Below, in pieces: positions 11,336-60,765 of a DNA stretch of 64,000 bases (position 1 is the first letter of the stretch; each line of letters opens with the position of its first letter). Made by a program: the position numbers and the translations under genes. Source of the stretch: Deltaproteobacteria bacterium RIFCSPHIGHO2_02_FULL_40_28 (GTDB taxonomy: Bacteria; UBA10199; 2-12-FULL-40-28). Under the pieces are notes generated by a model. That model worked only from the letters and a program-made list of their open reading frames with translations, was not told where the DNA came from and searched no databases. Location of the stretch: NCBI GenBank assembly GCA_001798135.1, contig MGRJ01000031.1:57589-121588 (forward strand), read 5' to 3'.

Positions 11336-11348
11336 ATACCCAATATTT

Positions 11349-35407: not shown

Positions 35408-38400
35408 TTATCCCGCGGCCTTTAAGGCTGCTGCAACCACTGGAGATGCACTTCCTCGTCTCATGGCACCTGCTCGTGTTGCCATTGCTTCCATACGAGC
35501 ACTAGGACCGGCATGTTCTATCACACCTACATCTTCTAGCACTTGATCGACAGCACTTGCAGGGTCTTCGGCATCCAAGGCCATAGCTAATTGCTGCCAA
35601 TGAATATTTTCTAAACCAAGCCCTTCCATTTCATCACGGCCATAACCATGTTCTTCCAAACGAGCAAGAAGGGTTGCGCGATCCATCTCTCCAGTAGGGG
35701 CGTGATTTATCACGCCCTGTTCAGAGGGCGCAATAAATTGCGCCCCTACATGAGAGACACCTTGAACCAAGCCACTACGCAAACCAGCAACATCTGCTAA
35801 GCTAACAAGTTCTCCAGTTGCTCTAGCCGCTACTTCTCCAGGTGCAGATGGAGAACCTGGATCGCCACGTCGCTCTTCGGGCTCCTCGCGATGACCAGGG
35901 CTCGGGCCATCTCCACCATCAGGGCCACTATCTCTTCCGGGCTCTGGAGGAGGTGGAGCTTCGCGTCCATGGATTAAACGTTCAAACGTACTCTCTAATT
36001 CTTCACCCACACGTACTGTCCCCACATTTTGTGAAGCCAAGAAAATACCACCTTGCCTTCGCGTAGCATCATTAGCAGACTGGGCATTGGCAAAGGCATT
36101 AGTGACAGCTGTTCTCATCAAAGGCTTTGCAATGGCCTCTGTTAAAGTTTTATCTTTAATTTTCTCACGATAGAATTTTAATTGAGTGTCTAATTTTAAA
36201 GCTCCTGGAGTATCCATTAAACGAAGTTTGCGGCCTTCGGCATCTTCAATCACACGAACAGCTACGGAACTACCTAAAGATGGATCCCCGCCTTCGCGGG
36301 GATGACTGAGGGTAAGGGGATCACTCAGAATAGTTTTTCCACCATACTGACTTTCTTTTGAATAAAGAATGGCATCATCCAAGGCTACACCGCTAGCGCC
36401 CCAATGAAATGCGCCTTTTACATCTTCGTGGGTGGTATAGGCACCCGAAGCAATGACTGGAATTTTTGCATCATACAAAGCTTCACGAGCTTTTCGAACA
36501 ATCAGTTCGGGATCGGCATTCATGTCGCGATTTTGTTCAACGGCTTGAAGAATTTTATTAAAATTATGCCCCAAAGCTTTTTTAACAAAAGCAAAGGTGG
36601 CTCTAATTTCTGGATCCTCGGGATGGGCACGCAAGTTTTCGATAGCTCGCGCCAATACGTTTTGAGCTGCCTTCATTTGAGGAACATAACGAGCCGTTAA
36701 AACACCAATGGCCTGTCCGTCTTCACCAAAGAAGGTAACTTTCATGCGCATATCACTCGTTAAGCCATCCCACTCTGGAACCTCAGCCACTAAGGTAATT
36801 GCTTCATTGGCTTCCGGTGCACGCAAAGGAGTGTACAAATTATCTGCAGTGAATCCCCAAATTTTAAAAGCCATCATGCCTGTCCAGCCTGTTAATTCAT
36901 CAGCAGCCAGCATCATGGAATGATAACGGCTTTGACCTTCAATGGGTGTTACCCTTCCCCAAAGAGCTTTTTTTCCATCATCATAATTAAATCTAAAATG
37001 TAAGCCCGTGCCATGCTCATGCCCGGCTGCTACACAATTAGGTAAACATCCAAATTGAGCATTACTTGCAAGTTCGGCTGGATTAATTGTGCTGGCTTTA
37101 TCTTTGCTTTTAACTTTGGAAGCATCTTGGAAAGTAGCATTGGAAAGAGTTTTTTCTTCACGAGTGGCAGGCTTACCTCCTTCGGCTGGCTTATCAACAA
37201 GCTCCATCATTCTCATTTCAATGCGACCATCTGGTTTTTTCTCTACATAAATTCGAACATTGGCATTGGAAGGCGCATTCGCAATATAGCCCACGTTTCG
37301 ATGCAATTTATTAATATCAACTCTTTCGCCACCCTTCACCATGGCTTCTAAAACAGATTCAAAAATGGAATCAAGCATGCCTCCATGGGTGATACCCGTG
37401 TATCCCGCATAAGTTTCTGGAAGTTTAAAATCGACTTCGGATTTATTGGAGTAAAGTCTAAAAGAAGGAAAATCCGTTGTTTTGAATTGTAAATTAATGG
37501 GGCGAAGGGGCACAGTAGGCATCACATCCCACCTAGGATCTCTTAAGTCAGATAAATCACCAAATTTATTTTCTCCGGCCTGGTTTATATTTCCAGAAGA
37601 AATACTTCTCTCAACCACCACAGCATCAAACTTAGCCTTGGTAGTTTTTTGATTAGGTTTACCTTCGTGTTCAACCACCTTCATTTCAGTGAGTTTAATA
37701 ACCTCGGCTGCTGTATCCACCGTTTGAAAAACAGCAATGCCTACTTTATTTAAAGCAATGACTTGTTCTGTCTTAGGCAATCCCCCTCTAAACATCACGC
37801 CGCGCACTTGCTTTTCTGCAACCACTTTAAGTTGGGCTTCAAAGTTAGAGGCAGAAACATCTAAACTCACCACAAGAGGCGCTGTATTACCTACAGCGGC
37901 ATACACAGCATCAATTCTGGCCTCTAGGGTATCAGGGACCCCATTAACACCATTACCACCTTCAGTTGCTGCTTTTCTTGCAGCTCTTTCTCGTAAAACT
38001 TTTTCTGCTGCTGTTTCAGTGGCTTTTAAATTTCCTGCATCCAGGGTTCCAATGCCACCGGCATCAATAACAGCAATGGCCAAACTAGGTGTATTGACCT
38101 CTGGTGAAAAGCCACGTTGAAGCACAGGATAAGAAACACCCTTAAAGGCCTCGGGCATGGGCAACTGGGCTATCCCCTCTGCGTCATGTTTAATGCCTCT
38201 CTCTAAGGTTCTTTTTTCTTTGATGTCACCAATATGCTCAAAAGTATATTTGAGATAATCACCAGGTAAAATATCCGTCAGTAAAAGGGCCGTGTCTTCA
38301 CGAGACATTTTGCCTTCAAACTCCCTGATATCTTTACCGTTGGCCACCCAGGCTGCTTTTTCAGCTCCTAGTCTTGCTTCTAAACGAGCTTGAACTTCTT

Positions 38401-41400
38401 GAATTCTTCTGGCCACCTCGGGATAAACAGACACTTCGTGCTTATCTACAAAAACATAAATATTTTGATCATAGAGACCCCTTTCAAACTCACCTTTTAG
38501 AGCTCCCAAGAGAGCACGCACAGAAAGTTCATTCATAGATACAAATTTTGTTACCGCAGGATCAACTCCTGGTAAGACAAGAGCTCCACTTTGAATATCT
38601 TCAAAAATGCGTTTTTCAATCAAGCCCGCCAAGGTTCCACCAGGAATTGCATGTAATGCAAAAGATAAAAAAGCAGGAAAACTTAAAACACGACGTAAAC
38701 CTGTTTTAGGATCAGAAAGCCTGGGGCTTGCCAATTCTTTTTTGGTGGTCATCTTGGCGCGACCCAGAGAACCCTTGGTTTCCCAGGTAGCCCCGCCGTA
38801 CACTCCACCCAACATTCCATCCGATTCAGAACCACGCCAATCAAACCAAAAAGTTTCTGAAGCTCCAAAATGTTTGCCCCTGGCTCCTTTTAACCAACCT
38901 TGTTCATTGAATAAATCAAGCAAACGGGGATGGCTTCTGCCCATGGGAATAATGGTTGCTATTTCTTCTTCTTTTTCAGAGGCAAAATTAGGAATTTTTT
39001 TCATTTCTAATTCGCCATAGGAATTCATGCTAGGAACAGAAAGTTCGGGCTGGTAATGCGCCCTAGCAGGCAAGCCAAAGGCTACAGAGTCAAAGAAGTT
39101 TACCCCCGGGAGTAGATTTTGTTTAATCAAAGCATCAACAGTTAAACCTTTAATGTTATCCCATTGAAGCTCGGTGTCAAATTCTGTATTAACAGCGGCA
39201 AGCCAGCCCCTAGGGTCTGTAAATCCCAGTTCTTCTAACTTGGTTGTACCTTTCACCAGCACAGGGCGATTTAAAATACGAGAAGCTTTTCTAGTTAACC
39301 ATCCACGAATTTCAGCAACGGTAGGCTCAAAAGCTTTTCCAACAGCTTCAACCACTTCTTTGGGAAGAGGAGTTGGAGTACCGGTTGCTGCCGGGTGGCC
39401 CACATCAAAGGGTACGGCATTTACATTAAGCAATTGTAAGTTAACTCCATGAGTCTCCGCCAAGGCCTTCAAAACAGCAGGATTAAAGGCAGAAGCTTTT
39501 TCAACAAGTTCTTCGGGTTTAGCGGGATCAACGGGATTTGGATCACGATGCACACCCACTACTTCTTTAACCGCTCCTGATTTAATCAGCGCGATTAAGG
39601 TGCGCATACCCATGCCATCAGACATGCCGTAAAACACCATGGGACGACGATGCCAGTTTTTTTGACGAGCCAGGTGGCCCATTTCGTTTACTTCTCTTTG
39701 TCCAATGGAGTCATAAATTTCTTTTACACGGGCTTGGGCCTCGGCATATTTAATGGCATTGTGCTGAGAGCGAATAATTTCTGCATTGGCGCGTTTGTTA
39801 GTGGCGCTAGCTTGATCTGCTGTAACTTCCAAGCGTTTTACCTTCTTGTTTTCGAAATCAACCGTATACACTCTGGGGTTTACAAAATTATTCTGGGCTA
39901 AATCGGTATCCACTTCCAGCTCTACACCCTCATTTAAGGGGAATTGGTAAACCCAACTTTCGATATTGTTCCAATCCAGTTTTCTGCCTTCCAAAACAAG
40001 TGCACGAGCAATGGCATGGGAACGCAAGGTTACTTCATATTGATCACGATAGAGAGAAACGGGGGTTTCTTGATAAGTAGCCCGATTAAAAAACATTTTA
40101 CGCAAGCCCTGACGTTCGGCTCTTTTTTGAACTCTTTCTTTCGCTACTCCCTCAATGAGTTTAGCCACATAATCCACTGCAGATTCTTCGGTCTCAAAAC
40201 CCAGTTTTCCCATCACTTCAATGATGGCTGTATTTTTAGCATTAAAACCAGCAGCCTCACGAAGCACCACCCATGTTACATCGTCATCGTAGAGATCCCT
40301 TAAATTCTCGGCATGCTTATGGTGGTAAACAGTCACATTTTCTCCACCCTGTGCATGAATATTATCCAAACCAGGATCACCCGGAATACCCAAGAAACGC
40401 ATCACAAGTGGAGATAAAGCTGAATCGGAACCGGAAGAACCACCCAAGAGATGTCCCATATGGGCCTTGGTTTTAACAATGTGGGCAAACTGGGTGGGAT
40501 CTAAAATGGAAGAAAGGAAAAGACGTATGGATTCTTCCTCGTATAAATCTCCCATGGGCGTAGAAGTCTTGTGCGCCATTACAACCAGGCGTACATTTTC
40601 TTTAAGCTTACGGGTATTATCCACAAGAAAATCCACCAAATTTTTTCCCGTACGACCTTCTCCAACAGCTTTATTCCATTCTTCTTCAGTCAGTTTGGGG
40701 CCAAAACGTTCGACTAACTTATTGTAGAGAGCTTTTTGTTCGGTAAGTTTTAAACCCCACGTACTGATGGCTGTATCGGCATTAAATTCTGCTTTTGCAC
40801 GCCCTGCAGCACGCTTCCCCCTTTGAACTGCAACCATTAATTCTTGTACAATACCCGTCATTTCCTCTGGGGTATGCAACACTTCAGTTAATTTTTCTTT
40901 GGCTTGATCCCAGGCATCAAAAAGAGCCGAGCGTTGACCAATACCGTAACCTTCTCTGGCTCCCTTGTAGGCTTGTTTATCTCCATCGGTGCGGCTTTCT
41001 GCCCCTGCAATCATGGAGTAAACAGGATCTCCTGTTTTGATGGCATTAGAAAGTGGGGTAATCCCCTGACCACCACCACCCGCACCCAACACAAAACCAA
41101 AGCGTTCCATATCATCGGGACGGGAAGCCATTTTAATGGCAATATCGCGACCACGACGAACAGAATCTCTTATTGTGGCTCCAATGGCATCAAAACCAAA
41201 AATGGCGTTGAAGGTAATGGCGTAATCAACTCCACCGGCAATCCAAATTTTTGCAAAAACTTCATCCCAGTTAACATCCATTCCACTTTCTTCTCTGCGT
41301 GTTGCAGCCCAATACTCACTAAACAAATGTTTCACAGCCATCACAATGTTCATGTTTCCTGTAGAACAAGCAGCTACAACGGCTAGCGCCATCCCTTCAG

Positions 41401-44400
41401 CACCTAATTGTTCGGTAGCTACCTGACCTGTTGTTGAATCGGGAAGAAGAGCTGCCATTAAGTAGTTGGCCACGCTATCTTCTATTTGCATGGGTTTTAA
41501 GGTCATTTCATTGAAAGGCTCTAAGTCACCCAAGCCTGTACCAATGCCGACAAAAACATTTTTAGGACCAAAAACTTCATCCAACTCTTTAGGAGAGCGC
41601 CCTGCAGCCGACATCAAAATTTGGGATGTAAACATCTTGGCCATAAAGGAAGCTTTGGCCCCAGTACGAAGCTCGCTAGCGGGCACACCCATGCCTTCCC
41701 AGTCAAAACTGGTTTGACCCGGAAGATCGCCCGCAATGGTTTTAGGCAATTGAATTGTAAATTTCATGAAGTAGGTTTGGCCACCCTTGGCTAAAGCATA
41801 CAGAGAGCCATCAGGACGCCTATGAATAGCCAAACCAGCATTTTCTAGTTTTGTACGAGTAGCTGCAGGTAAATTAATTCCCTTAGCAGTATTTTCAATT
41901 TCGATTTCCTTGTCATTATCTCCAAAAGCAACTTGGCGAAGCACTTCAAATTCTTTGAAGCGACCAACTTCCTGAATACCACTATTGGCCAAAAGATGCG
42001 CTTCAACAGCATTTTGCCATGTTTTAAATTTTTCCAAAACAGCATCATCTAAACCAATGGAAGCGGCTAGTTTTTTATAATCTCCCCACTGGGAAACATC
42101 CACACCCATGGCCTTGGCCAAATTGTAAAAATCATAATTACCAAGCCAGCTATAACCCTCGTGCCCTTTAAATAAACCAGCCGCCAACATATTACGATAG
42201 TTGGCTAGGGCATCTGTTCCCAAGGGACCAACCATGCCATACCCACGCACCACAGGAGTTTCATCTTCAAAAAGGATATCGGTTTTAGGCTTGTAAGCAT
42301 AGCGACTGCTTGTTTCTCCCTTAATGGCAATGTTGATGTTATTGAGATCAACAATGGTTCCATCTAAGGGAATAAGGCTGGGATCTACTGCTGCTTTCTT
42401 TTCTTCTGCTTTTCTAGCTTTAGCTTCGGTATGTTTTATATCTTCTGTTTCTTTAACGCGCGCTTCTATCTCACCAAATTTTCCTGTTCTTAAGGCAGAC
42501 GTAAAACCATAGGTATCATCATATTCCCAAAGACCTTGAACCCGCTTGCGGGTATCTCCCTCTGGGGGTCTCAATTTACGTTTCCCAAATTTAGCAGCCA
42601 GCGCCCCCGATAAACCAACTGTTGACAGCTCATCACCTGTAAGGGTTTTAATTTTAATTCCTTCTGCTAGTGATTCAGTTTCTAGAGGTTGCGAATAATA
42701 ATCTTTGCCCGACATTAAAGTTTCTGATCTGCCATCTGATTTTCCCCAACCCGTTGTTCTAGCTACTTCCACTAAAATGGGCTTTTCTTCTTCGTCTCTA
42801 ATCCCATTGGCATAGGCCTCTGCTGCGGTTTGACCTGGAGGCAGAGCATTTTTAGTTAAGTGATAACTTTTGGAACCTGGTAGGGCCGCAGGATTTAATT
42901 CTCCCTCAAGCTCACCCAAGTTTGCTGCATTATTGGGAGTGTAGAGATTAACAAAAACAACTTTCTCCCCTGTTTTGTATTTTTGATGGAGTTTAGCCAG
43001 ACTAATGGCCATCCAACGCGTAGAAAGAGCCATCACCAAAAGAGAATCGAGTGGAGTACCACGATCGGCTAGAGAGCCATAGTCTTCACGTCCAGCTCCA
43101 TTGATGTAGAGAGTAGGGAGATGAGGCATTTGAGGTTCTACTTCTAATTCACCCTTTCTGTATTTTTCTTTATCTTCCTTGTATTGTTTTAAGTCTGCAA
43201 CATACTTCATTTCGATGTAATAAAGCAGGGCATCTTCATCAAAGCGGTTTCCGGGTTGCATATTGGGCACCACATCCATACTGGCTCCATCCGCTGCCTC
43301 GCTGTAAATATCGTAGTAAAGATCGCTGGCTACTCTGCCTTTGCGCTCGGCACTTCGGCCAGCATAATCTGTCATCATCACGTTACCACCCAATTGCATC
43401 CACTTGGAGGCATAGCCGGCTGTGATGGTTGAAGCTTGATGAATTAAGGCCACATGCCCACGCAAATCGTAACCATCCTCAAGTAAAAACTGGAGATCTT
43501 TCCCTGTTTTTTTATCGGCCATGGTGGGATCGGCTAATCTTTTCGCAGCTTCGATAGTGCCATCAGTATCTGGAACAAATTGTGATTTTTTAGCACCTCC
43601 ATAGGTGGGAACATGATTACCCGAAACGATATCGATCACCTTCCCGGTATAAATAATTCCCTCATCCAAACGATGTGCAGCTAATGTGTAGAGATGTTCC
43701 AAGGTATCAATACGTCCTTGGCGACGGGCCTTTTCTGCTGTATCCGCAGTTGCATCCCGTTTTTTGGTTTCGGCATTGATGAAACCACGCAACCAACCCA
43801 AGCGAATACTATCGATTCCATTTGCAATTTGACGCATTTCTCTTTCTTCTTGGTCCAAAAGACTTGCACGTAATGCGTCAGAAGCATCTTCGGGCATACG
43901 GGTTTCAAAAGCAGCGCTTCGCACATAACCCACAAAACGCATGAGGCGGGCTATGCCTCCATTTTGGGTTACATGATTAAAACCATACACACCCATGCCA
44001 GCACGCACGGAAGTTAAAACACCTGTCACATCTTCGGCCGTCATATCCCCGCGTAAAATTTTACGAGGATCAATGGTTTCTGTTCCCCCCTCGGTACCTC
44101 GGTAGTAAATACTATCGGCATAATGGGGTTGCATGAGGCTATCCATAAAGAAGTCGGAGGTGGAAACACGAACAGCCCCTAAACGACGTTCTGCTTCGGC
44201 TAAACGAGAAGCTTGTTCTGAATCATAAGTTGTGGGTGCGCCTTTAGCATCAAGACCCACACGGGTATCTGTGGCTTCTACTCCTCTAGCTGAAGGGGTT
44301 GCTAAAACAGCAACAGCTGCACCTCGAGCCCCTGTTGCACCTGGCGAAGCTGGTGGTGGAGAATCTCCAGCAGCCGCAGGGGCGCTGCTCGCTGCGCCCA

Positions 44401-47400
44401 CAGAAGCCAATGCTGTTTGAATGGCTTGTTGAATAAGCTTGTCTTCGTTAGAGAGAGTTGTAGTTGTTGCAACCGCTGCTGCTCCAAGCTTCACTCCTTT
44501 TTTATCTAAAAGTTTTGCAAAATCGTTAACGCTTTTTACTTTTTCCAGGTCTCCATCCGAAATGGTAATAGAATACTTGGCTTGATAGGCACTTCTAACT
44601 TCATTGATTTTATTTGTATCAAAACCAAGATCATCCGCAAAACGAGTACTGGCTTCAATAGTTTCTGATACGCTCACTAAGCTTAATTGCTTCATGGTGA
44701 GGCCAATATCATCTACTAAAGACCCTCCCCCTGCACCCCCTCCCTGAGGGAGGGGGGAAGTTTGTGCACTTCCGGTTTGAGCAGTAATTGCTGCTAATCT
44801 AGCCTCTAAACCCGACCTGGCCGAAGCTCCTAAACCTTGAAGTTGTGTTGCTAGTTGTGTTGCTAAAGCATCTAAATGAGTCCCGGCATCAATGGCTGCT
44901 CGATTAGCGGCTACAAAGGTAGAAAGGGTGGAATCAACAGATGAGACCCCTCCCCCTGCACCCTCTCCCTGAGGGAGGGGGGAAGTATTGGTCATAACAG
45001 AATTGGTAAGGGCTTGGGTAATGGCTTTTTGTTCTACCTCTTCAGCAGGAGGAAGGGTAGCAGTAGCAGCAGAAGCTACAGCAACAGTTGCAGCAAGTTT
45101 GACTCCCTTTTTTTCTAAAAGAGCAGCAAACTGATTAACTGTGGATATTTTTTCAATCTCAGAATCGGCAATGGCAATGCCATGTCTACTTTGATAGGCA
45201 TTTCTTAACTCGTTTATTTTGTTGGTATCATAACCCAAATCATCTTTAAAACGCGTACCCCCTTCTACAGCTTCTGACGCACCAATCTGACCTAATTGTT
45301 TCATGGTTACAATAACATCATCTACTAAAGACCCTCCCCCTGCACCCCCTCCCTGAGGGAGGGGGGAAGTTTGTGCATTTCCAGCTTTACCAAGCAATTC
45401 ACTTTGACGCGCTTTTAACGCATCTGCTGCACCCGCACCTAATGCAACTAATTGTCCAGATAATTGAGTAGCCAACGCATCTAAATTTTGACGCGCTTCA
45501 ATAGCAGGTTTATTGGCCCCCACAAAGGCATCAACAATGGCTTTTACTTCAGCAGGAGTTACTTGCTTGAGAGCAGAGGTACTCGAAGGTGCTACTGTAG
45601 CAATAGCTTGAGGCTGGGCTGCCACTTCATCTGCTGCTCCTCTTCGAAGATCTTCTAATGTTTCTACCTTGATTTCACCAACCGTAATATCGGGGCGGTT
45701 GACTTCAACAACGGCTGTTTCGGCACTGGCAGTTAATGCCCCAATTTCCTTGGTATTAAAAGCCTTTAAAGAGTTGGCATAAATAATTTCAATGCGTTCA
45801 TCAGGTTTAATAATTCCTTTTGCTTTCAAATATTTTACTTCTTCTTCAATAAAGGGTTTTAAGGTGCCCGCTGATTGATGATGAGAAGGCCCAATTTCAA
45901 TAAAGCGTCTTACCCCTTCTTCTAACATTTTTCGAACATTAGCCCGCCAACGCACACTACGAGCCAATTGGCCGGCCATAATTTCACCCAAAAGTTGTTT
46001 TCTTCTCTCGTTAGTTGGAGGAGAAAAATCATCCTCGGCAATCCCTTTTTCTCTTCCTATTTCACGTAAAGATTTTCCTTCAACATCCAAGTAAACATCC
46101 ACAGCTTGATCTAATTTAGCAGGATCAAAAGGAATACCATGCTGACGCATGTAAACCAAGAAATCCGCCGAAGCCATTTCCATCAAGGAGGTATGAAAAG
46201 CATTGGCAATGGGACGAATATTGAGTGTGTATCCAAATTGATCAAACAATCCCCACACACTTTCGGCTAAACGATAATACTGGGGATTTGTTGTGGGATT
46301 TTTATCAAACAAAGCCTTGTGTCCACCAATCATCCACTGTTTAGGAGAGTTATCATTGGAAAATTCAACAACAAAGGGTGGCTCAATCTCCATCTCTACA
46401 CATTGCCCCCTCACATACTCTTGCATTGCTGTCATTTGCGCTTCACTTAAAGGCTCAACCTCATCTCCCTTGGGAAACACAGCAACAAGAGCTTGCGGTC
46501 TTTCTGTATCAATGTATCGCACCTGGGAAGAACCACGCTCGTAAACAGCTTTCATGGCATCATCAGGACTTAACATTCCAGAAGCAACTAGGGTAATCCA
46601 CATGCCCAAACTATGACCTGCATAAGCGGCATCACGAGGAATCAAACCCTTTGCCTGTAGCTCTTCAAACAAAATCAAAGAGTAGGCCATGATCATGGGT
46701 TGAACTTTGGAGGTATCATCTTCAGTTTTATCAGTCTTCCCCGCTTTGCTGTTCATGGATTTAACCAGATCAACAATGGGCTCTTTTCCATCAGGAGATA
46801 ATCCAATGGAATTCACTGCAGCTTTCAACGCCTCTCTTTTGTCTGCATCAATGTAGATTCCTAAAGAATCAATGGCATCTAAAAGGGGTTGATGTCTTTG
46901 GGCTGCATCGGCCTCTAAAAGGGCTTTATACAAAACAGGCATAACCCTGGCCTGACCAGCAATTTTAGCTTCTGCCCTGGTTGGCGCTGTATACTTGTAA
47001 TGTTTTAATTCCCGTACAAGGGCGGCTTGAATCTTTCTGGCCGAAGCTGAAATTTTGGGCATGTACTCTTGAAACTGAGCCAGCCTGGCTCTTCTTGCCG
47101 GATCAGAAATGAGATGATTGCCCATATCCAGGTATTGAGAGCCCTGGCCTGTAAAAACAACGGCTGTTTTAACTCCCTTGCCTACCAAATCGTAACTCAT
47201 CACAGCTGTGCCTTGTGCATTTTTTACTACCACATGGTAGGAATCTACACCTTCGGCGGTTGCTGTACGGGTTACCTCTGGAAAAAGTTTATCCCCCATC
47301 CCCACAAAGCCCGTGTATTTAAGGTTGGCTACTCCTAGGGCATCACGCATGAGTCCCGCTCTTTGCATTTCGTTTAAAACAAATTCGTTCACATGAGCAA

Positions 47401-50400
47401 AGGTAGCCATGCCCTGCATGATGCGCCCTTGCGCAATTCCACCCGCAACAGCTGCTAAATCAGAAACATGGATGGGATTTAAATCGACAACATATTTTTC
47501 AGCTAAATCTACTGGAATGGTTAACGAACCTTTAAACACCAAACGACTTTGAGGAAGATAGGCCAAACGTTCTGAAAGATACTTGGAAGCCACCACTCCC
47601 AATTTTTTGTACTCGGCCTTTAATAAATCTCCCAAACGTTTTTGTTCAGCTTCTACTTTAGCTTTGGCATCAGCATCACCTTCTTCTGCTTTTTTAATTA
47701 ATTTTGCTAAAGTCTCAATAGCTGTAGCATGCTTACCCATAAAGGCAGCATAGGCAGCTTGTGCCTTGGCTCCATCAAAATAAGGAATGCGTTTGGGGCT
47801 TGGCCTTTCTTTTAAGTCTTCATTCCATTCATCAATGTCAGTTTTTAAATCTTTTTGATACCCTTCAATAGCTAGGCGTTCAATAGTTTGAGCCGGGCTT
47901 GCCACATTGTTATAAACTGTTCTTCCTTCTAAAAGATTAATGGCGGCATCGGGAGCTTTAAATATAACGCGCTCTGGCCCTGTACGCATGCGGGATACCA
48001 AGGAAGAATCGATCACACGTACTAATTCTTCAGTTGCACCTTTTATACGATACACTTCAGCACGCACCACTATACGCCGACCTGCCAAGCGGCCATCATT
48101 AAAATCTTCGGCTTTTAAAAGACGAGAACGAGTTACAAGAGTATCCCCCACACGAATAGGGGCTACAAAATTAAAAGTTTTCCCCTCGTCAATTACACGA
48201 GTTGGATCCATATCGAATTCTTCCATAAACATGGCGCCATCCAAGGATTGCCACATGTCGTGCGAAAGATAATGCGGATGCACTTCAAAATTTCTGGCAT
48301 GGGCATCAAGATACTTGGCTTCTGTAGACCCAATGGAGGCTGCATAATCTGTTGCCTGACGGGGCGTTAAAGGAGATGACCGCCTCTCAAAAACTGCCCC
48401 TCCTGCACCTGCTTGTTCTTTAGAAACGCTAGCCCACTCGGTTGGAATATCCCAAATTTGTCTGTAAAAAACTCTAGCTTCCTTTCGAAATTGATCCATG
48501 TTTTCTTGTTCCCAAGTAGCACCCACTTTTTTGTAATTGCGGTTTAATTCATAGTGCGTGGTGAGATCGGATGGACTAGGATAATAATACTGAACCATGT
48601 GAATTCCACCGTCTCCCCTATTAGTAACAGCAAAAGAAAGCCGACCATTTTCGTAAAAATTAATGGTTTTTACTTTTCCATTTTCAAATTGAAATTCAAT
48701 TTCATGACGCGTTTTATCTTTTTCGGGAACATTCCGAATAAAACCAAGATAGGGATTATTTTCTGGTTTTCCCTCTACCGTTATTTTTTTAGCTTTTAAA
48801 AAATCGGTGAGAACACTGTCGGGATCAATACCTAAAATACCGTTTTTATATTTTTCAAATACACTGGGATTAGTTCCATCAGATTTTTCATCCATGCGCT
48901 TGGTTGGAACAACACGAACATTTAAATAATCATCACTTCCATCTACTGTTTTAACTTGTACTTGTACTCCATCAATGGCTTTTAGTTTTCCTACAGCAGA
49001 ATCATCTGTATCTTTTTTTGTTTTAGGTATTGTTTGCAAATGAGCTTTAAGGGGATCGTTGCTTGTAGTACGAAGCCAACTTTTCATTCCATCGGCATCT
49101 TCATCAACCACTCCTAAAATATCCATGCGCTTATTAGAAAACACAGCAGGAAGGGCAGTTTTAGCATGATGGGAAGAAGGTCCTACAGTTACAGCTGAAG
49201 TAGCACCGTGGCTTGCCGCCCAACGGTATTGATGGGGCATATTGACTGGCCAATGCCATTGCTGACGACGCAAGTTTAAAGCAATATCACTCTCTGGGGT
49301 AATGGGAGTGATATTATAATTATGAATTACAGTTGAAAGATAGGGAGCTCGCAAAGGAAGGGGTGTTCCTGGTTCATAATGATTGGCTGTGGCTAGAAGC
49401 CTTTCGTGCTCTGCGGGAGCATCTGCATAAACCCTGGGATTATGGGGAGGCATGGTAAGGCCCGTTTGAGTGAGAGGATCACGCACATTGTTATTCCACG
49501 AAAAAGAAGTAACAATGGGTTTTAAGCGGGTAACTGTTGCATCATCATAACCTGTCCAATCAAAATCACGCTTAAAAATAATCATCTTGGCCAATTCTGC
49601 CAAGGCTTTTCCATGACCAATCATCAAAATAAAATGAGAACGAGTCCCATCTTTGGTTTCATCTGTATTTACATTGTTCACAGCTACATAATCATCTGTT
49701 CCTGCATAACGAGTATTAATGGCTTCAACGAGTTGCCCCAACTCACTCTCACCTGGATTAAACCAATCATAGGGGATACCCGAAACCGTCATGGTAACCA
49801 AATTATATCTTTGAAAATAAGTGTCGATGTCTTGAGGTTTGGGTGGAATTTTTTTACCTTCACCGTCCATTTTAACTAAGGGATCAAATTCTGTGGCTCC
49901 CTCTGCATTGGCATTAAAGGGTCCTTCAAAAACAGCCCCTTCCGTAACAGACCATTCGATAAAATTTTGATACGCCTGCACCGTATGGTATCCACGGAAA
50001 TCCCCATCGTTTCTAGGAATCAAGGGGCGCTCATACCCTTCTACATCAAAGGAACCACCTGCAAAGTAAGCTGCAGGCAAGCCTCCCGATTGACCTAAGA
50101 GGGCCACAAATTGACCAAAATCATACCCATGAAGTTCCATCACCCTTACCCGAAGGGCCTGAACTAAGTTAATCATGGGAAAGGCATGGCTTACACGACT
50201 GATTTCAATGTAGTTGGCATAGATTTTTTGATCGGCATCGGCCATACGACGCAATTTTTCGATATCAATGCCATGGCGTATGAAAATATCGCGCAATTCA
50301 CCATAAAGTTTTTGAGCTTCAGGATAATTTTCGATTAAAAAGTTGAGTTCATTGATGTAACCTGCCCCCTGACCTGCAAACACAGCAAAGGGCTTATCGC

Positions 50401-51139
50401 GACCATCTCGAATATCTAAGGCTCTTTGAGCCATGGGCTCTAAGCCCTGTTTTCTAATTTCATCACGAAGCCTGGTATAAACTTCCCAATCGGTTGCATT
50501 GATGGAGGCTTTTTTAAGTGCATCATCTTTTGTAGGATCAGGATCAGCCTTACCATTCATTCCAAATTCATAATCGGCACGTGCTAAAAGTTCCCAAAGG
50601 AAAAGTGTTCTTTGTCCTTCAGTTATTTCTAAAAGCTCAGCATCATGATCTAAAACTACTTCTGCTAATCCTAAAGTTTTTCCTAAATTTTTAAAACGTC
50701 CCGAAAAATAAGTGGCATAATCTCCTTCTCCTTCGGCCTGAGCTAAAATGCTATGAGCAACAGCTTCAAATTGATCACTTACATAAACCACATCCCCACC
50801 TACAGAAATTCCTTTGAAATGAAATTCGCTGGGATAAATGGGATTACCATCTTGATCAAGCCCAATAGAGCCTGTAAAGCGCTGTAAACCACGTTCGGAA
50901 ACTGGGCCCACAAACATTTCAAGCCGGCTACGCAAGGCCTCCATTTGAGATCCCTCAACAAGACCCGATCGTTCTAACTTGCTCAACATGTTACGACGCA
51001 GTAGAGAAGTTTTAGCTGCTGAAACCTCAACTAAAACTTGCCCTACTTCAGAATCTTTTAAAGGTGTTGTTCGATCACCTGATATGATCTGTGAGTAAAT
51101 AGAGGCACCGATTGCATTCGCCATACTTTCTCCGTTCAT
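35408..51139 (-). CDS. Giant (5243 aa) type I fatty-acid-synthase-like megasynthase. N to C: AT-like domain, unknown region, malonyl/acyl transferase, two ACP-like domains, reductase-like region, fungal-type ketoacyl synthase, unknown/DH-like region, NMO-type TIM-barrel enoyl-reductase-like domain
   Basis: Single uninterrupted 15.7-kb ORF. Motifs: VFAGQGAGY (AT-like, about aa 250); VVFTGQGSQ + AYAGHSLG (MPT, about aa 1400-1510); two ACP-like units FKDDLGYDTNKINEL / FADDLGFDTNKINEV (about aa 1940-2200); KS Cys VVAACSTG plus SRPDD..GFVLGAGGG and KAHMGHLLGGSSG (about aa 3050-3500); PVIASGAYTTHEDVKGAFHWGASGVALDDAIL (ER-like, about aa 4700-4940). Likely start at the Met at 51124, preceded by GGAGAA. 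Confidence 0.8.
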   Translation of the reverse strand: MNGESMANAIGASIYSQIISGDRTTPLKDSEVGQVLVEVSAAKTSLLRRNMLSKLERSGLVEGSQMEALRSRLEMFVGPVSERGLQRFTGSIGLDQDGNPIYPSEFHFKGISVGGDVVYVSDQFEAVAHSILAQAEGEGDYATYFSGRFKNLGKTLGLAEVVLDHDAELLEITEGQRTLFLWELLARADYEFGMNGKADPDPTKDDALKKASINATDWEVYTRLRDEIRKQGLEPMAQRALDIRDGRDKPFAVFAGQGAGYINELNFLIENYPEAQKLYGELRDIFIRHGIDIEKLRRMADADQKIYANYIEISRVSHAFPMINLVQALRVRVMELHGYDFGQFVALLGQSGGLPAAYFAGGSFDVEGYERPLIPRNDGDFRGYHTVQAYQNFIEWSVTEGAVFEGPFNANAEGATEFDPLVKMDGEGKKIPPKPQDIDTYFQRYNLVTMTVSGIPYDWFNPGESELGQLVEAINTRYAGTDDYVAVNNVNTDETKDGTRSHFILMIGHGKALAELAKMIIFKRDFDWTGYDDATVTRLKPIVTSFSWNNNVRDPLTQTGLTMPPHNPRVYADAPAEHERLLATANHYEPGTPLPLRAPYLSTVIHNYNITPITPESDIALNLRRQQWHWPVNMPHQYRWAASHGATSAVTVGPSSHHAKTALPAVFSNKRMDILGVVDEDADGMKSWLRTTSNDPLKAHLQTIPKTKKDTDDSAVGKLKAIDGVQVQVKTVDGSDDYLNVRVVPTKRMDEKSDGTNPSVFEKYKNGILGIDPDSVLTDFLKAKKITVEGKPENNPYLGFIRNVPEKDKTRHEIEFQFENGKVKTINFYENGRLSFAVTNRGDGGIHMVQYYYPSPSDLTTHYELNRNYKKVGATWEQENMDQFRKEARVFYRQIWDIPTEWASVSKEQAGAGGAVFERRSSPLTPRQATDYAASIGSTEAKYLDAHARNFEVHPHYLSHDMWQSLDGAMFMEEFDMDPTRVIDEGKTFNFVAPIRVGDTLVTRSRLLKAEDFNDGRLAGRRIVVRAEVYRIKGATEELVRVIDSSLVSRMRTGPERVIFKAPDAAINLLEGRTVYNNVASPAQTIERLAIEGYQKDLKTDIDEWNEDLKERPSPKRIPYFDGAKAQAAYAAFMGKHATAIETLAKLIKKAEEGDADAKAKVEAEQKRLGDLLKAEYKKLGVVASKYLSERLAYLPQSRLVFKGSLTIPVDLAEKYVVDLNPIHVSDLAAVAGGIAQGRIMQGMATFAHVNEFVLNEMQRAGLMRDALGVANLKYTGFVGMGDKLFPEVTRTATAEGVDSYHVVVKNAQGTAVMSYDLVGKGVKTAVVFTGQGSQYLDMGNHLISDPARRARLAQFQEYMPKISASARKIQAALVRELKHYKYTAPTRAEAKIAGQARVMPVLYKALLEADAAQRHQPLLDAIDSLGIYIDADKREALKAAVNSIGLSPDGKEPIVDLVKSMNSKAGKTDKTEDDTSKVQPMIMAYSLILFEELQAKGLIPRDAAYAGHSLGMWITLVASGMLSPDDAMKAVYERGSSQVRYIDTERPQALVAVFPKGDEVEPLSEAQMTAMQEYVRGQCVEMEIEPPFVVEFSNDNSPKQWMIGGHKALFDKNPTTNPQYYRLAESVWGLFDQFGYTLNIRPIANAFHTSLMEMASADFLVYMRQHGIPFDPAKLDQAVDVYLDVEGKSLREIGREKGIAEDDFSPPTNERRKQLLGEIMAGQLARSVRWRANVRKMLEEGVRRFIEIGPSHHQSAGTLKPFIEEEVKYLKAKGIIKPDERIEIIYANSLKAFNTKEIGALTASAETAVVEVNRPDITVGEIKVETLEDLRRGAADEVAAQPQAIATVAPSSTSALKQVTPAEVKAIVDAFVGANKPAIEARQNLDALATQLSGQLVALGAGAADALKARQSELLGKAGNAQTSPLPQGGGAGGGSLVDDVIVTMKQLGQIGASEAVEGGTRFKDDLGYDTNKINELRNAYQSRHGIAIADSEIEKISTVNQFAALLEKKGVKLAATVAVASAATATLPPAEEVEQKAITQALTNSVMTNTSPLPQGEGAGGGVSSVDSTLSTFVAANRAAIDAGTHLDALATQLATQLQGLGASARSGLEARLAAITAQTGSAQTSPLPQGGGAGGGSLVDDIGLTMKQLSLVSVSETIEASTRFADDLGFDTNKINEVRSAYQAKYSITISDGDLEKVKSVNDFAKLLDKKGVKLGAAAVATTTTLSNEDKLIQQAIQTALASVGAASSAPAAAGDSPPPASPGATGARGAAVAVLATPSARGVEATDTRVGLDAKGAPTTYDSEQASRLAEAERRLGAVRVSTSDFFMDSLMQPHYADSIYYRGTEGGTETIDPRKILRGDMTAEDVTGVLTSVRAGMGVYGFNHVTQNGGIARLMRFVGYVRSAAFETRMPEDASDALRASLLDQEEREMRQIANGIDSIRLGWLRGFINAETKKRDATADTAEKARRQGRIDTLEHLYTLAAHRLDEGIIYTGKVIDIVSGNHVPTYGGAKKSQFVPDTDGTIEAAKRLADPTMADKKTGKDLQFLLEDGYDLRGHVALIHQASTITAGYASKWMQLGGNVMMTDYAGRSAERKGRVASDLYYDIYSEAADGASMDVVPNMQPGNRFDEDALLYYIEMKYVADLKQYKEDKEKYRKGELEVEPQMPHLPTLYINGAGREDYGSLADRGTPLDSLLVMALSTRWMAISLAKLHQKYKTGEKVVFVNLYTPNNAANLGELEGELNPAALPGSKSYHLTKNALPPGQTAAEAYANGIRDEEEKPILVEVARTTGWGKSDGRSETLMSGKDYYSQPLETESLAEGIKIKTLTGDELSTVGLSGALAAKFGKRKLRPPEGDTRKRVQGLWEYDDTYGFTSALRTGKFGEIEARVKETEDIKHTEAKARKAEEKKAAVDPSLIPLDGTIVDLNNINIAIKGETSSRYAYKPKTDILFEDETPVVRGYGMVGPLGTDALANYRNMLAAGLFKGHEGYSWLGNYDFYNLAKAMGVDVSQWGDYKKLAASIGLDDAVLEKFKTWQNAVEAHLLANSGIQEVGRFKEFEVLRQVAFGDNDKEIEIENTAKGINLPAATRTKLENAGLAIHRRPDGSLYALAKGGQTYFMKFTIQLPKTIAGDLPGQTSFDWEGMGVPASELRTGAKASFMAKMFTSQILMSAAGRSPKELDEVFGPKNVFVGIGTGLGDLEPFNEMTLKPMQIEDSVANYLMAALLPDSTTGQVATEQLGAEGMALAVVAACSTGNMNIVMAVKHLFSEYWAATRREESGMDVNWDEVFAKIWIAGGVDYAITFNAIFGFDAIGATIRDSVRRGRDIAIKMASRPDDMERFGFVLGAGGGGQGITPLSNAIKTGDPVYSMIAGAESRTDGDKQAYKGAREGYGIGQRSALFDAWDQAKEKLTEVLHTPEEMTGIVQELMVAVQRGKRAAGRAKAEFNADTAISTWGLKLTEQKALYNKLVERFGPKLTEEEWNKAVGEGRTGKNLVDFLVDNTRKLKENVRLVVMAHKTSTPMGDLYEEESIRLFLSSILDPTQFAHIVKTKAHMGHLLGGSSGSDSALSPLVMRFLGIPGDPGLDNIHAQGGENVTVYHHKHAENLRDLYDDDVTWVVLREAAGFNAKNTAIIEVMGKLGFETEESAVDYVAKLIEGVAKERVQKRAERQGLRKMFFNRATYQETPVSLYRDQYEVTLRSHAIARALVLEGRKLDWNNIESWVYQFPLNEGVELEVDTDLAQNNFVNPRVYTVDFENKKVKRLEVTADQASATNKRANAEIIRSQHNAIKYAEAQARVKEIYDSIGQREVNEMGHLARQKNWHRRPMVFYGMSDGMGMRTLIALIKSGAVKEVVGVHRDPNPVDPAKPEELVEKASAFNPAVLKALAETHGVNLQLLNVNAVPFDVGHPAATGTPTPLPKEVVEAVGKAFEPTVAEIRGWLTRKASRILNRPVLVKGTTKLEELGFTDPRGWLAAVNTEFDTELQWDNIKGLTVDALIKQNLLPGVNFFDSVAFGLPARAHYQPELSVPSMNSYGELEMKKIPNFASEKEEEIATIIPMGRSHPRLLDLFNEQGWLKGARGKHFGASETFWFDWRGSESDGMLGGVYGGATWETKGSLGRAKMTTKKELASPRLSDPKTGLRRVLSFPAFLSFALHAIPGGTLAGLIEKRIFEDIQSGALVLPGVDPAVTKFVSMNELSVRALLGALKGEFERGLYDQNIYVFVDKHEVSVYPEVARRIQEVQARLEARLGAEKAAWVANGKDIREFEGKMSREDTALLLTDILPGDYLKYTFEHIGDIKEKRTLERGIKHDAEGIAQLPMPEAFKGVSYPVLQRGFSPEVNTPSLAIAVIDAGGIGTLDAGNLKATETAAEKVLRERAARKAATEGGNGVNGVPDTLEARIDAVYAAVGNTAPLVVSLDVSASNFEAQLKVVAEKQVRGVMFRGGLPKTEQVIALNKVGIAVFQTVDTAAEVIKLTEMKVVEHEGKPNQKTTKAKFDAVVVERSISSGNINQAGENKFGDLSDLRDPRWDVMPTVPLRPINLQFKTTDFPSFRLYSNKSEVDFKLPETYAGYTGITHGGMLDSIFESVLEAMVKGGERVDINKLHRNVGYIANAPSNANVRIYVEKKPDGRIEMRMMELVDKPAEGGKPATREEKTLSNATFQDASKVKSKDKASTINPAELASNAQFGCLPNCVAAGHEHGTGLHFRFNYDDGKKALWGRVTPIEGQSRYHSMMLAADELTGWTGMMAFKIWGFTADNLYTPLRAPEANEAITLVAEVPEWDGLTSDMRMKVTFFGEDGQAIGVLTARYVPQMKAAQNVLARAIENLRAHPEDPEIRATFAFVKKALGHNFNKILQAVEQNRDMNADPELIVRKAREALYDAKIPVIASGAYTTHEDVKGAFHWGASGVALDDAILYSKESQYGGKTILSDPLTLSHPREGGDPSLGSSVAVRVIEDAEGRKLRLMDTPGALKLDTQLKFYREKIKDKTLTEAIAKPLMRTAVTNAFANAQSANDATRRQGGIFLASQNVGTVRVGEELESTFERLIHGREAPPPPEPGRDSGPDGGDGPSPGHREEPEERRGDPGSPSAPGEVAARATGELVSLADVAGLRSGLVQGVSHVGAQFIAPSEQGVINHAPTGEMDRATLLARLEEHGYGRDEMEGLGLENIHWQQLAMALDAEDPASAVDQVLEDVGVIEHAGPSARMEAMATRAGAMRRGSASPVVAAALKAAG
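36310..37100 (-). other. Enoyl-reductase-like FMN TIM-barrel (nitronate monooxygenase fold) domain (approximate bounds)
   Basis: ...IPVIASGAYTTHEDVKGAFHWGASGVALDDAIL resembles the NMO/FAS-ER G-rich FMN-binding segment. Confidence 0.5.
40640..41990 (-). other. Ketoacyl-synthase domain, fungal/CMN FAS-I type (approximate bounds)
   Basis: Active-site Cys codon at about 41362 in AACSTG. Downstream His/Lys-His motifs. Confidence 0.6.
44500..45372 (-). other. Tandem ACP-like domains with Thr at the canonical phosphopantetheine Ser position, separated by and flanked with three in-frame family B repeat cores
   Basis: Codons gat-acc (about 45221-45235) and gat-aca (about 44601-44609) encode D-T in the DLGxD(S/T) motif. 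The flanking helices align with E. coli ACP ([25 protein letters not shown] against SRHGIAIADSEIEKISTVNQFAALL). Confidence 0.6.
46000..46970 (-). other. Malonyl/acyl transferase (MPT-like) domain of the megasynthase (approximate bounds)
   Basis: GQGSQ and GHSLG (Ser codon at about 46610) read from the translation. Confidence 0.6.
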
Positions 51140-51427: not shown

Positions 51428-54400
51428 CTATATCTTCGCCTTAACCCAAGTCATTTCACCACGGCGTCGGGCTAATTGATACACATTAGCACCCCTTGCC
51501 CCATTTGTAGGGGCAGGTTCTAAACCTGCCCGGGCGGGTTCAAGCTCTTCTGCAATCACTGCTAAAGCTTCCATATTTTCGGCTTGGACAGCTGCTCTTA
51601 AAGCAAGTTCCATCTCTGCTGGGATAATATCCATTTCTGCGAATTCAGCTCCTAAATCAGCATCTACAGCAGCTATTACCTCTGCCAAGGGGGTTTGATC
51701 CATCTCAGTAGGAATGGCTAAATCGTGGAAACCAAGGGTGTCTAAAAGCTCGCGAGCGGTTTGAACAACCCACTCAGTATAAATCCCTCGGGTTGCCGCT
51801 CGGGATGCCCTTTCCTCAGGAGTTTCCAAGAATACTAATCTGGGAGCTAAACTAAGAGCGTTCGCTCCACTTACAGCGGATAAACCACCTAAAACTTCTC
51901 CACCTATTGCCAATCCTAATGGAGAATCCGTAGGGGCAGGTTCTAAACCTGCCCCCGAATCATGGACGGGTTGGGAACCCGCCCCTACACGATCTGTGGG
52001 TTCAACCCCTCGGCTCCCCCCTTGCTCTCTGGTAGGGACTTGCCCTTCTGCTGGCAGGCCACCACCAGAACCAGGAGAAGGTCTCTCTGGAGGTGTTACT
52101 CCATTGGCAAGCCCCGCCTTGACATAAATAGGTCCACGCTGGGATTTAGCTACTTCACCAAATCCACTACTTCCATTACGATACAGAACCGTATTACCTT
52201 CAAAAATTTCTGGCGTCTTTTCATAAGCAACTACAATGTGGGTTACTTGGGGAAATGCTGCTCTCACCCTCTCAAAAATATTCTGTTGAGTAAAAAATGG
52301 AATTCCGATGGGTTTGTTAATTCCCTTACTTTGACTCGGGGTTTTTACTTGTGAAAAACGAATAATTTTTCCGTCATCATGAACGCTAATACGAACATGT
52401 CTGGTTGAAGAAAAAACATAGGCACCGTTAACCTGTTCTTTTTCAACCCAACCTAACGCTTGTGCTACTGTTACAGGGGTTACAAGAGTAACTGGGGCGA
52501 CGCGTGGGTCGCCCCCTACATCAGGAGCAAGGGTAGTTACGGTAGGGGCAAACCCCTGTGTTTGCCCTTCTGTTGGTGGATCTCCTGGAGGAGGATCACC
52601 TGCTGGAGCACTCGAAGCAGGGCCGCCAGAAGGTGGGGTTCTCACCAAGGCCAATAAACCTTCTGCTAAACTTTCAGCTCCCATAACTGCTGATAAACGC
52701 CCACGCATTGGTTTTGGCAACATTTCTAAAAGCCCACGAGCACGTTCCATCAAAGTTACTGCTTGTCCAAACTTGGCCTCGTTAATTTTTTCTGCTAAGA
52801 AAGCTGTATTTTTTTGAATCCAATTTTCTACAAAGGCATTATCGGCCCATAATTCATCGTTGGTTCGACCTGGATTGCCACGCGTCGCCATGTCTTCATT
52901 AAACCAACCACGAATTTTTTCTCTCGCTTCTACAGGAGTGAGATTAAATTCTCCCGTATCTCCATCACGCCCAGAGGCCTGCAGAAGAGCTTTTCTTAAT
53001 TGATCAAAGGCCACACTTCTGGCCAACCATTGATGTCCTTCAGATCTAAAATCTTTCCAATCTACAATGCGGTTGATCACTCCTTTTGTAAGCATGCGTT
53101 CGGGCACATCATGGGCATCAGCAAATTGAGTGGCAATAGATCGATAAACAGGAAGAAGTATTTTTTCCCTGGCGGCAATTTGTTCTTTAAATCCTGTAGT
53201 TTGTCCACTATCAGCAGGCACCCTGGCAAGTTGAGATTCTAGCTCAATGATGGCATCATCACATTCTCTCATCTTGGCTTTTAAAAACTCATCATCTTTT
53301 CCCCAAATTTTAAGTCTGGCAGTAGCTCCTGCTTCCAAAACATTTCCACGAGAAGTAGATTCTGCCCAAAAGGTTGCTTGATCTTGATGATTAATGGTTG
53401 GATCAACCACCACCCAGGCTCCACCCCGCAGCTCTCCAAAGGGAGGCAGCATAATCATTACAGGAGCATCGTACTGACGCAATTCATCCACAATAAAAGA
53501 ACCATACTTCAAAATATGGTCGAACATGTTATCGACACCGCCCGAAAATCCTCTCCAGTTGGGAAGCACCACTAAAGGTAAACCTTCGCGCCTGGCATCC
53601 CCCATAAATTCAGCTGTTTTCCAAGCCGAATCAGACCACCACACCTTGCCTGCTTGATCCACACGCCTTTCAGAAGAAGCTCTCATGGCTGCATCAGCAG
53701 GAATAACTTTTTGTGTCGACCGTAATTCGGGTGTCAGCACAGCAACAGGAATACCTCCCCATCGAGCCCGACCCGTCACCACACTTTTAGCCCATTCCCC
53801 CATGTCTTCCTTAAAAGATCCCTCATCTAAAAAGCCCGGGGCATACTCTCCTTCAAAAGCAATGGTACCCTCTTTGGCAACAGGAGTTGGACCACCACGA
53901 ATTAAAAAGCGGGGATCATAAACCATTGCGGGGTCAAGAGGTTTCCAAAGGTTGGTGCGGTTTACTGGATCTGTGTTCTTTACAATGAGAAGTTCGCCGC
54001 CTTTTACTTTTGGAATAAAAGAAATCCAATCCAAAAAGGTTTTCATTCCAGCAATATCATCTTCTACCACAGTGCGAGTATTTCCATTGGCCGCATGAAT
54101 ATTCACTCCACCAAATTCCTGGTTATCGGTGTAATACTCATCTCCCATCAACTCATTCATCATGTCTTTACCAGTAAGCATCATGGCCGTGCCCCGTTTT
54201 TGAATGACACGACGATTTAAACGGCTAATATACGCCCCAATACCCACGTTTAGCCCCATTACGTAAGTGAAGGTAAGGCCTTCATCATAGGCCTTAGAGG
54301 CTTCTCCCGCAATGGTTCCAGAGCCTCTTAGATTTTCAACTCCAATACCATCGGGGCCATCTTTAATACCGGTAATTTTCCAACGAGTTTCACCTTCTAC

Positions 54401-60546: not shown

Positions 60547-60609
60547 TAAAGCGGGGCACAGGTTCAATGTCATCCTGAACCCTTCACCTGTCATCCTGAC
60601 AATTAAAAT

Positions 60610-60765
60610 TCCCCTCTCCCCTTGGGGGAGAGGGTGCAGGGTGAGGGGTAATTCAAAATTTTCACCCTCTCCCTAACCCTCCCCCCTCTTAACATTAAGA
60701 GGGGGTAACGGTTTTCCTTTTCTTACCCCCTCTTAGAATAAGAGGGGGGAGGGGGAGTTATCCCC
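60610..60765. repeat. Family B composite palindrome plus cttaacattaagaggggg sub-repeat
   Basis: cccctctccccttgggggagagggtgcagggtgaggggta...ttttcaccctctccctaaccctcccccctcttaacattaagagggggtaacgg...ccccctcttagaataagaggggggagggggag. Confidence 0.8.

Follow-up and report, generated by a model that had tools for sequence, protein, structure and literature searches.

How does a dispersed palindromic DNA repeat come to be translated, three times over, within a single biosynthetic enzyme? The question is raised by a 64,000-nt stretch of contig MGRJ01000031.1 from Deltaproteobacteria bacterium RIFCSPHIGHO2_02_FULL_40_28, referred to here as the window; all repeat-family counts below cover this window only and not the whole genome. 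A 38-nt element, CCCTCCCCCTGCACCCCCTCCCTGAGGGAGGGGGGAAG, occurs in the window three times with 0-1 mismatch between the copies, where 100 dinucleotide-preserving shuffles gave an expectation of 0.00 matches. All three copies lie in one gene, which encodes a FAS-I-like megasynthase of 5243 aa (35408-51139, minus strand, identified by its open reading frame (ORF) and Pfam matches). A first-pass annotation of the DNA had reported this triple in-frame occurrence, and the shuffles bear it out. Our analysis points to a repeat unit of the BoxC/PIT/TMECO type. Such units were probably acquired in the linkers of the synthase, the outer pair by way of gene conversion, and have probably persisted as tolerated insertions. 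Of the readings we considered, the best is that the element is a tolerated insertion that is now part of the linker, and a selected role is not favoured.

The copies lie on the minus strand at 44723-44760, 44948-44985 and 45332-45369. The first of these intervals is as originally annotated, while the second and third had been placed one base off, at 44947-44985 and 45331-45370. The two outer copies are the same (0 mismatches), and the middle copy has one C-to-T change. On the coding strand the unit reads CCCCCTCCC-TCA-GGGAGGGGG-TGCA-GGGGGAGGG. It starts with a C-stem of 9 nt and continues, across a short loop, with a G-stem of equal length that is complementary to it; the 4-nt loop TGCA then leads to another G-stem in mirror image. 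The G-stems of the coding copies are exact mirror images of each other. Copies 1 and 3 form a perfect hairpin, whereas that of copy 2 contains one mismatch; in this copy the first G-stem is GGGAGAGGG and one additional G stands at the 3′ edge. A T-rich dinucleotide precedes every copy, as it does the intergenic units described below. In each of the three cases it is the coding strand that is G-rich and that, on inspection of the sequence, fits a canonical G-quadruplex motif.

Translated in frame, the outer copies give TSPLPQGGGAGGGS and the middle copy gives TSPLPQGEGAGGGV. A stop codon occurs in only one of the unit's six possible reading frames, so copies that are in frame can survive. The composition of the element is foreign to the gene around it: GC content is 71% in the element versus 44% in the gene (the 99.9th percentile of the gene's 42-nt windows), and GGG makes up 3 of the 6 Gly codons within the element versus 13% of those in the rest of the gene. 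An Rfam search of the window returned no family matching the element. A second repeat was sought in the GC-rich stretch after the second carrier domain (near aa 2244), and none was found there.

The domain layout of the synthase places the three peptides in linkers. By Pfam, the domains run in the order FAS1-type dehydratase, MaoC dehydratase, acyltransferase, two acyl carrier protein (ACP)-like domains with a single weak PP-binding match, in the second of them, ketosynthase and NMO-type enoyl reductase. The first ACP-like domain (45095-45328, minus strand, aa 1938-2015, predicted local distance difference test (pLDDT) about 65-77) reads DLGYDT at the active-site position and is preceded by a helical segment, X1 (45371-45562, minus strand). 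The second (44486-44719, minus strand, aa 2141-2218) reads DLGFDT, has a weak PF00550 match below the cut-off (E 7.5e-4), and is preceded by helical segment X2 (44762-44944, minus strand), which is conserved in homologues as LDALATQL...LGA...L..RL. Both domains carry Thr where the homologues have the Ser of phosphopantetheine attachment (DLGIDS). The copy at 45332-45369 occupies the linker between X1 and the first ACP-like domain, the copy at 44723-44760 the linker between X2 and the second, and the middle copy lies in the linker upstream of X2, with no adjoining ACP. The earlier claim that an element stands immediately before each ACP-like domain is thus correct for the outer two copies and not for the middle one, which precedes a helical segment. 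In a low-confidence single-sequence AlphaFold2 model of the region, the three element peptides coincide with the model's three non-helical, low-pLDDT gaps between the helical and ACP-like segments. These positions are compatible with flexible linkers, and the model serves as weak support.

Homologous synthases indicate what such linkers look like without the element. For the ACP region, an exhaustive search of 1.84 billion representative proteins gave no more than two homologues that are informative: P0001, with 4533 aa and 34% identity, and P0002, a fragment of 1998 aa with 39% identity. Two word-indexed protein searches, one using the ACP region and the other the dehydratase/acyltransferase region, each left 0 scoring sequences among 8000 candidates. 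P0001 and P0002 share the repeated architecture of helical segment, linker and ACP, and in the alignment the element peptides fall between the conserved segments, in the inter-domain linkers. Neither the element nor its peptide TSPLPQ is present, at the protein or the DNA level, in any of the seven equivalent linkers of P0001 and P0002, a comparison that the first-pass annotation had proposed and that turned out in favour of acquisition. Where the window has TSPLPQGGGAGGGS, the homologues read SGGGAS or SGTGES, encoded by ordinary mixed codons (GGC/GGA/GGT/TCC, for example TCC GGC GGA GGC GCT TCC), and none of the linker DNA of P0001 and P0002 has the C-stem/G-stem layout. In the alignment of seven units the window linkers are only about 5-9 residues longer than those of the homologues, and opposite the middle copy all the other aligned units have a gap of 8 columns. 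Because the homologue linkers lack the element and use ordinary codons, a lineage-specific acquisition is indicated rather than convergent low complexity. We conclude from these sequence comparisons that duplication of the units came first and that the lineage then acquired the blocks.

The element belongs to a dispersed family. The blocks had been said to share their core with the window's "family B" palindromes, and this relationship is real: a repeat search of the window groups them with double-unit elements at 4260-4356, 5605-5727, 12555-12646 and 60605-60760 (families D5, D8, D10 and D17). Those four are inverted pairs of units around an AT-rich spacer, and the blocks in the synthase gene are single units, making 11 family B units at 7 loci (four inverted pairs and three single units). 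The stretch 4318-4356 reads CCCTCCCCCTTCACCCCCTCCCCTCCAGGGAGGGGGGAT, 4268-4304 is 81% complementary to 44946-44982, and the TGCA loop of the coding copies is also present at 4267-4302 and 60612-60647. The double-unit copies had been taken as intergenic. Three of the pairs are (5605-5727, 12555-12646 and 60605-60760), but the copy at 4260-4356 lies inside the coding sequence of FtsY. In all, 5 of the 11 units and 4 of the 7 loci are genic, coding sequence making up about 85% of the window. At 60680-60760 the right-hand unit of the last pair is split by another small palindrome (CTCTTAACATTAAGAGGGGG...CCCCCTCTTAGAATAAGAG), and this nesting of repeats in repeats suggests ongoing mobility.

Family B is a local branch of a very widespread, already described repeat family. 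This is the BoxC or PIT repeat, also known as the "TMECO" intrastrand triplex motif, which was described by Bachellier and colleagues in the 1990s, by Hoyne and Maher (2000) and by Holder et al. (2015; PMC4666352), and it is not peculiar to this genome. The published TMECO pattern, CCCTCNCCC N3-6 GGGNGAGGG N3 GGGNGAGGG, is recorded 3610 times across 262 proteobacterial genomes; the 23 copies of E. coli K-12 are intergenic without exception, and their function is not known (PMC4666352). The strict pattern fits exactly the intergenic units at 5612-5646 (type A, with a TTA loop) and 12608-12642 (minus strand). Used as a query, the intergenic unit at 5606-5652, which is not the coding variant, proves similar to E. 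coli BoxC: it matches 5400 of 5426 complete E. coli genomes with 88-90% identity over about 41 nt, at a median of 14 places per genome. A core-motif scan with one genome per species gave at least 106 loci, often with many copies per genome, and Acetothermia, Nitrospirales, Burkholderiales, Omnitrophota, candidate-phyla-radiation bacteria and others are among the matches listed. The exact stem variant of the coding copies was found in a metagenome scan at 19 loci, all in other organisms, the synthase gene not being among them. In the present genome the BoxC-type family has multiplied together with several other palindromes that resemble repetitive extragenic palindromes (REPs). We know of no transposase for BoxC.

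The two outer copies are identical well beyond the element itself. A presumed gene-conversion tract of 61 nt at 44708-44768 is 100% identical to its partner at 45317-45377 (both minus strand), and it consists of the element, 15 nt encoding SLVDD at the start of the ACP, and 7 nt encoding AQ. Outside the element the paralogous units have 62.6% DNA identity, and within it 42/42 nt are identical. In the flanks, taken as 20 codons to either side and thus including the extensions of 15 nt and 7 nt, 72/120 nt are identical. By our own arithmetic, 22 matching flank positions at a 63% background have a chance of about 0.63^22 = 4e-5. A 61-nt identical tract in units that are otherwise about 63% identical points to a short gene conversion between paralogous linkers, so one outer copy was probably copied from the other and not inserted independently. 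The middle copy, whose flanks are unrelated and whose linker is not homologous to the others, would be a separate insertion or else an ectopic copy. Gene conversion fits the published link of triplex motifs with local genome instability in E. coli (PMC4666352). The 61-nt tract further suggests that repeats of this kind can set off conversion from one tandem domain to another, a point of interest for the evolution of carrier-domain arrays.

The synthase is not the only gene into which units of this family have been inserted in frame. The FtsY protein encoded in the window (ORF 3630-4625, minus strand) has 45 extra residues, versus 2 in E. coli FtsY, at the junction of its N and G domains (window 4260-4412), and residues 12-75 and 121-327, on either side of this segment, align with solved FtsY structures. 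The segment is made of one family A palindrome (MDPRLRGDD) and a complete double-unit family B element, read ...SPLPGGEGVKGEGENLNTPHPAPSPPRGEG..., and the insertion is unambiguous. As RNA, the double-unit element in FtsY folds with a z of -4.6. Outside this genome, such units make up about 38 extra residues in the NadB of another organism, and an Acetothermia HypF gene has about 31 extra residues. Units also stand in frame inside Pfam-verified genes for IleRS, a P-type ATPase, a NiFe-hydrogenase large subunit, an E1-dehydrogenase and an FtsX permease in other phyla, the last of these being conserved in three Nitrospirales genomes. A candidate case is an ORF of an Anaerolineaceae genome, which reads PLPLGGGAG in the same register as the window copies.

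A broader reading of these cases is possible, and we hold it tentatively. It treats BoxC units as pan-bacterial, coding-compatible selfish elements that time and again enter housekeeping and enzyme genes in frame, at loops and linkers, and that spread within the megasynthase by repeat-triggered conversion. As parts of the same tentative reading, the examples would extend across Pseudomonadota-like, Acetothermia, Nitrospirales, Bacteroidetes and Anaerolineae genomes, and each unit might add a stereotyped (S/V)PLP-x-x-G/E-...-G-E/G-G peptide. If true, the linkers of a carrier-protein array owe their architecture in part to an instability element acting at the level of DNA.

For the synthase itself we favour the following course of events. 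The tandem units of helical segment and ACP would have duplicated and diverged, after which a BoxC-type unit probably entered the coding sequence at a Gly-rich inter-domain linker. A short gene conversion, to which the 61-nt tract points, would then have copied the unit to the equivalent linker of the other unit, and the third copy would have arisen in a non-homologous linker by separate insertion or ectopic conversion. The annotated scheme of three insertions therefore claims too much and gives way to probable gene conversion for the outer pair. Persistence would rest on the stop-free frames, the Pro/Gly-rich, structure-poor peptide, the flexible linker site and the small gain in length; open frames, a structure-poor peptide and a flexible linker together make such insertions tolerable, so that they persist as part of the linker. 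Spread may be passive, selfish or recombination-driven, and we favour its combination with selection that removes all but the harmless in-frame copies. The description of the element as a mobile or selfish palindromic repeat serving as linker sequence agrees with its dispersed family, its foreign GC content, the FtsY insertion and the position of its peptides between domains. The further proposal that it was co-opted for this role finds no support, as there is nothing to indicate a selected function and the homologues already have Gly-rich linkers of the form S-G-x-G-x-S.

Several observations weigh against a history of acquired and tolerated insertions. The element peptide overlaps both invariant Gly columns of the alignment, and its AGGGS part aligns with the conserved G-x-G; the insertion is therefore not a clean one and its boundaries cannot be set. 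The element overlays or replaces part of the ancestral S-G-x-G-x-S linker and is no simple addition to it. No close relative of the gene (>50% identical) with an empty site was found, so that insertion is deduced from homologues that are 34-39% identical, in regions that align poorly. None of the three sites displays a recognisable target-site duplication. All that their flanks have in common is ACT and TCT, and the boundaries, viewed as those of a miniature inverted-repeat transposable element, are blurred by the overlap with ancestral Gly codons. No other insertion signatures are visible at these sites. The coding copies miss the strict TMECO pattern by three substitutions and by their 4-nt second loop, and the relaxed pattern fits all three; they are thus a variant of the family and not canonical TMECO. 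As RNA, the single units fold at -25.6 to -28.1 kcal/mol with z of -0.9 to -1.5, no better than composition-matched shuffles. The AlphaFold2 model of the ACP region has a mean pLDDT of only 48.5.

Could the linkers simply have been Gly/Pro-rich all along, with the resemblance to a repeat a by-product of G- and C-rich codons? The homologues do have Gly-rich linkers at the same position (SGGGAS, SGTGES), two Gly of the element peptide align with invariant columns, and C-run/G-run sequences fold well in whatever order the runs stand. An ancestral linker with the same peptide is the outcome that the first-pass annotation had named as telling against insertion, and the homologue linkers are otherwise: they are written in mixed codons and lack the layout. 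The window copies, moreover, are identical or one base apart over 38 nt where 0 are expected by chance, they have the full order of C-stem, G-stem and mirror G-stem with the TGCA loop found at 4267-4302 and 60612-60647, and their composition is strongly atypical for the gene. Convergent low complexity is largely refuted, and we consider it very improbable. Three independent insertions of a mobile element that prefers sites of this kind would account for the non-homologous linker and unrelated flanks of the middle copy, for the presence of the family in other coding sequences of this genome, and for the T-rich dinucleotide that precedes all copies as it does the intergenic units. It does not sit well with the 22 further flanking nucleotides that the outer copies share within units that are 63% identical (about 4e-5), a pattern that fits copying with flanks by gene conversion, and three independent insertions are in our view unlikely.

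The element might also have been kept for a function, with a hairpin, G-quadruplex or triplex slowing translation between domains or promoting recombination of the ACP units, or with the Pro/Gly peptide acting as an optimised linker. The coding orientation of the G-rich strand in all three copies and its fit to the canonical G-quadruplex motif would suit such a role, as would copies that are better conserved than their surroundings, a PLP...G.G register that recurs in other proteins, and triplex motifs that are tied to local genome instability in E. coli (PMC4666352). Nothing experimental or comparative supports a function, however: recent conversion accounts for the copies being identical, the homologues work with plain linkers, and when these elements were studied in vivo in earlier work, they did not act as promoters or terminators or block polymerase (PMC4666352). 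We regard retention for a function as distinctly unlikely. That a short-read metagenome assembly collapsed or mis-joined repeats into the gene is hardly credible. The source is indeed a repeat-rich metagenome-assembled genome (MAG), and a related contig, L112, breaks at a repeat-rich spacer just past the neighbouring acetyl-CoA carboxylase (ACC) gene. Against this, 12 contigs from different samples and assemblers carry that ACC gene, 10 of the 12 are grouped as similar places, and their neighbouring genes are mostly the same proteins as at the locus with the 5243-aa product. The frame is also kept through all three blocks, and the flanks continue the homology to P0001 and P0002. The contigs with the neighbouring ACC gene all have the same gene content, with no presence/absence polymorphism among them. 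Units of the BoxC/PIT/TMECO type, acquired in the linkers and tolerated there, are thus the reading we prefer.

Repeats of other families are translated in the window as well, and at least four families are found in the genes of this genome, namely those for FtsY, the phosphopantetheinyl transferase (PPTase), ACC and the FAS-like synthase. A PPTase-like ORF at 34409-35275 (minus strand, Pfam ACPS) holds two family A palindromes and a GTAG-type REP in frame at 34885-35060, which read MDPRLRGDD...GGDPCVTPLNGQTHGFAPT...HSREGGDPS. In the C-terminal part of the FAS-like gene, a family A palindrome at 36277-36306 is translated as SHPREGGDPS. The C-terminal part of the 2787-aa ACC contains translated GTAG-type REPs at 51507-51531, 51930-51988 and 52542-52567, with the peptides GAGLEPAPT (twice) and GQTQGFAPT. 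A long ORF call for PurN (11238-11966) starts inside GTAG-type REP copies (window 11238-11350). In the public record PurN has only 205 aa, and the additional N-terminal part of the call is therefore probably an artefact, caused by an open frame that derives from the repeats. In a contig from another sample (L109, 15127-16714), NirB is identical, but FtsY stops at 174 residues and a HicB-like gene comes next. This break is either a rearrangement or a mis-join, and it is not located at the repeat insertion.

The neighbourhood of the synthase is itself unusual. The gene is flanked by the 2787-aa multidomain ACC and by the PPTase, and the region 34409-59791 brings together a single-chain ACC with an ACC_central domain, a synthase with its dehydratase (DH), acyltransferase (AT), ketosynthase (KS) and enoyl reductase (ER) in the order DH-AT-ACP-ACP-KS-ER, and a PPTase. 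The synthase region has only about four relatives among the 1.84 billion representative proteins, and in one of these (L133) a 1407-aa gene with no Pfam annotation lies directly upstream. Elsewhere in the window, the sole Rfam hit is a group I intron (RF00028, 57 bits) at 23609-24213 on the minus strand, which overlaps or adjoins an ORF for a PD-(D/E)XK endonuclease (Pfam PDDEXK_5, E 7e-51). A host gene for the intron was not identified, and ARAGORN found no tRNA in the window.

BoxC and triplex-motif repeats have so far been described as strictly intergenic and of no known function. Gly/Pro-rich linkers in megasynthases and odd insertions in MAG enzymes can be repeat-derived, which matters for annotation and engineering. 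The finding leaves the understanding of how the synthase works unchanged.

How does this case compare with known systems? With published BoxC/PIT/TMECO repeats, the units share the three-block layout, the occurrence as single units and inverted pairs, and a strong conservation across distant bacteria. They differ in that the E. coli K-12 copies are all intergenic, whereas here 5 of 11 units lie inside coding sequences, and in that the coding copies have stems CCCCCTCCC / GGGAGGGGG / GGGGGAGGG and a second loop of 4 nt (TGCA) rather than 3 nt. A REP or REPIN mobilised by a RAYT was considered and rejected: the unit has no 5′ GTAG head, while other families in the window have one (for example GTAGGGGCAAACCC). 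No Y1-transposase (RAYT) domain was found among the window ORFs scanned, the rest of the genome not being searched.

Tandem ACP domains of polyunsaturated fatty acid (PUFA) synthases and other megasynthases are separated by flexible, low-complexity spacers rich in Ala, Pro and Gly. The linkers described here resemble these in being flexible spacers between carrier domains, and P0001 and P0002 have plain linkers of this kind. In the window, however, part of each linker derives from a dispersed DNA repeat that can be recognised as such, and not from ordinary low-complexity coding sequence.

The intragenic ERIC/RU, RUP and NEMIS/Correia repeats show that small repeats of intergenic origin, if their frames are open, now and then become fused into genes (Delihas 2007, PMC2759123). 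These are similar in behaviour but belong to other sequence families, mostly with terminal inverted repeats, and BoxC-type units are not mentioned as intragenic in that work (PMC2759123). A further parallel is offered by the Rickettsia palindromic elements (RPE) of Ogata et al. (2000), as summarised in PMC10969869. These too are dispersed palindromic repeats that stand in frame in unrelated genes and are translated as an extra peptide without destroying the protein. As summarised there, they are about 100-150 bp long and specific to Rickettsia, whereas the present unit is 38-42 nt, G/C-rich and found in many phyla. In the synthase, as in insertions of the RPE kind, a member of a repeat family stands in a coding sequence with the frame kept, and the segment is absent from homologues that are 34-39% identical. 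The resemblance would be one of behaviour and not of family membership, and a sequence relationship is not expected given the length and composition of the unit. The synthase combines two known phenomena, BoxC-type repeats and Rickettsia-style in-frame palindromic insertions, a combination of which we found no description in the searchable literature. That a protein can tolerate selfish repeat DNA within it is plainly seen here, though not for the first time.

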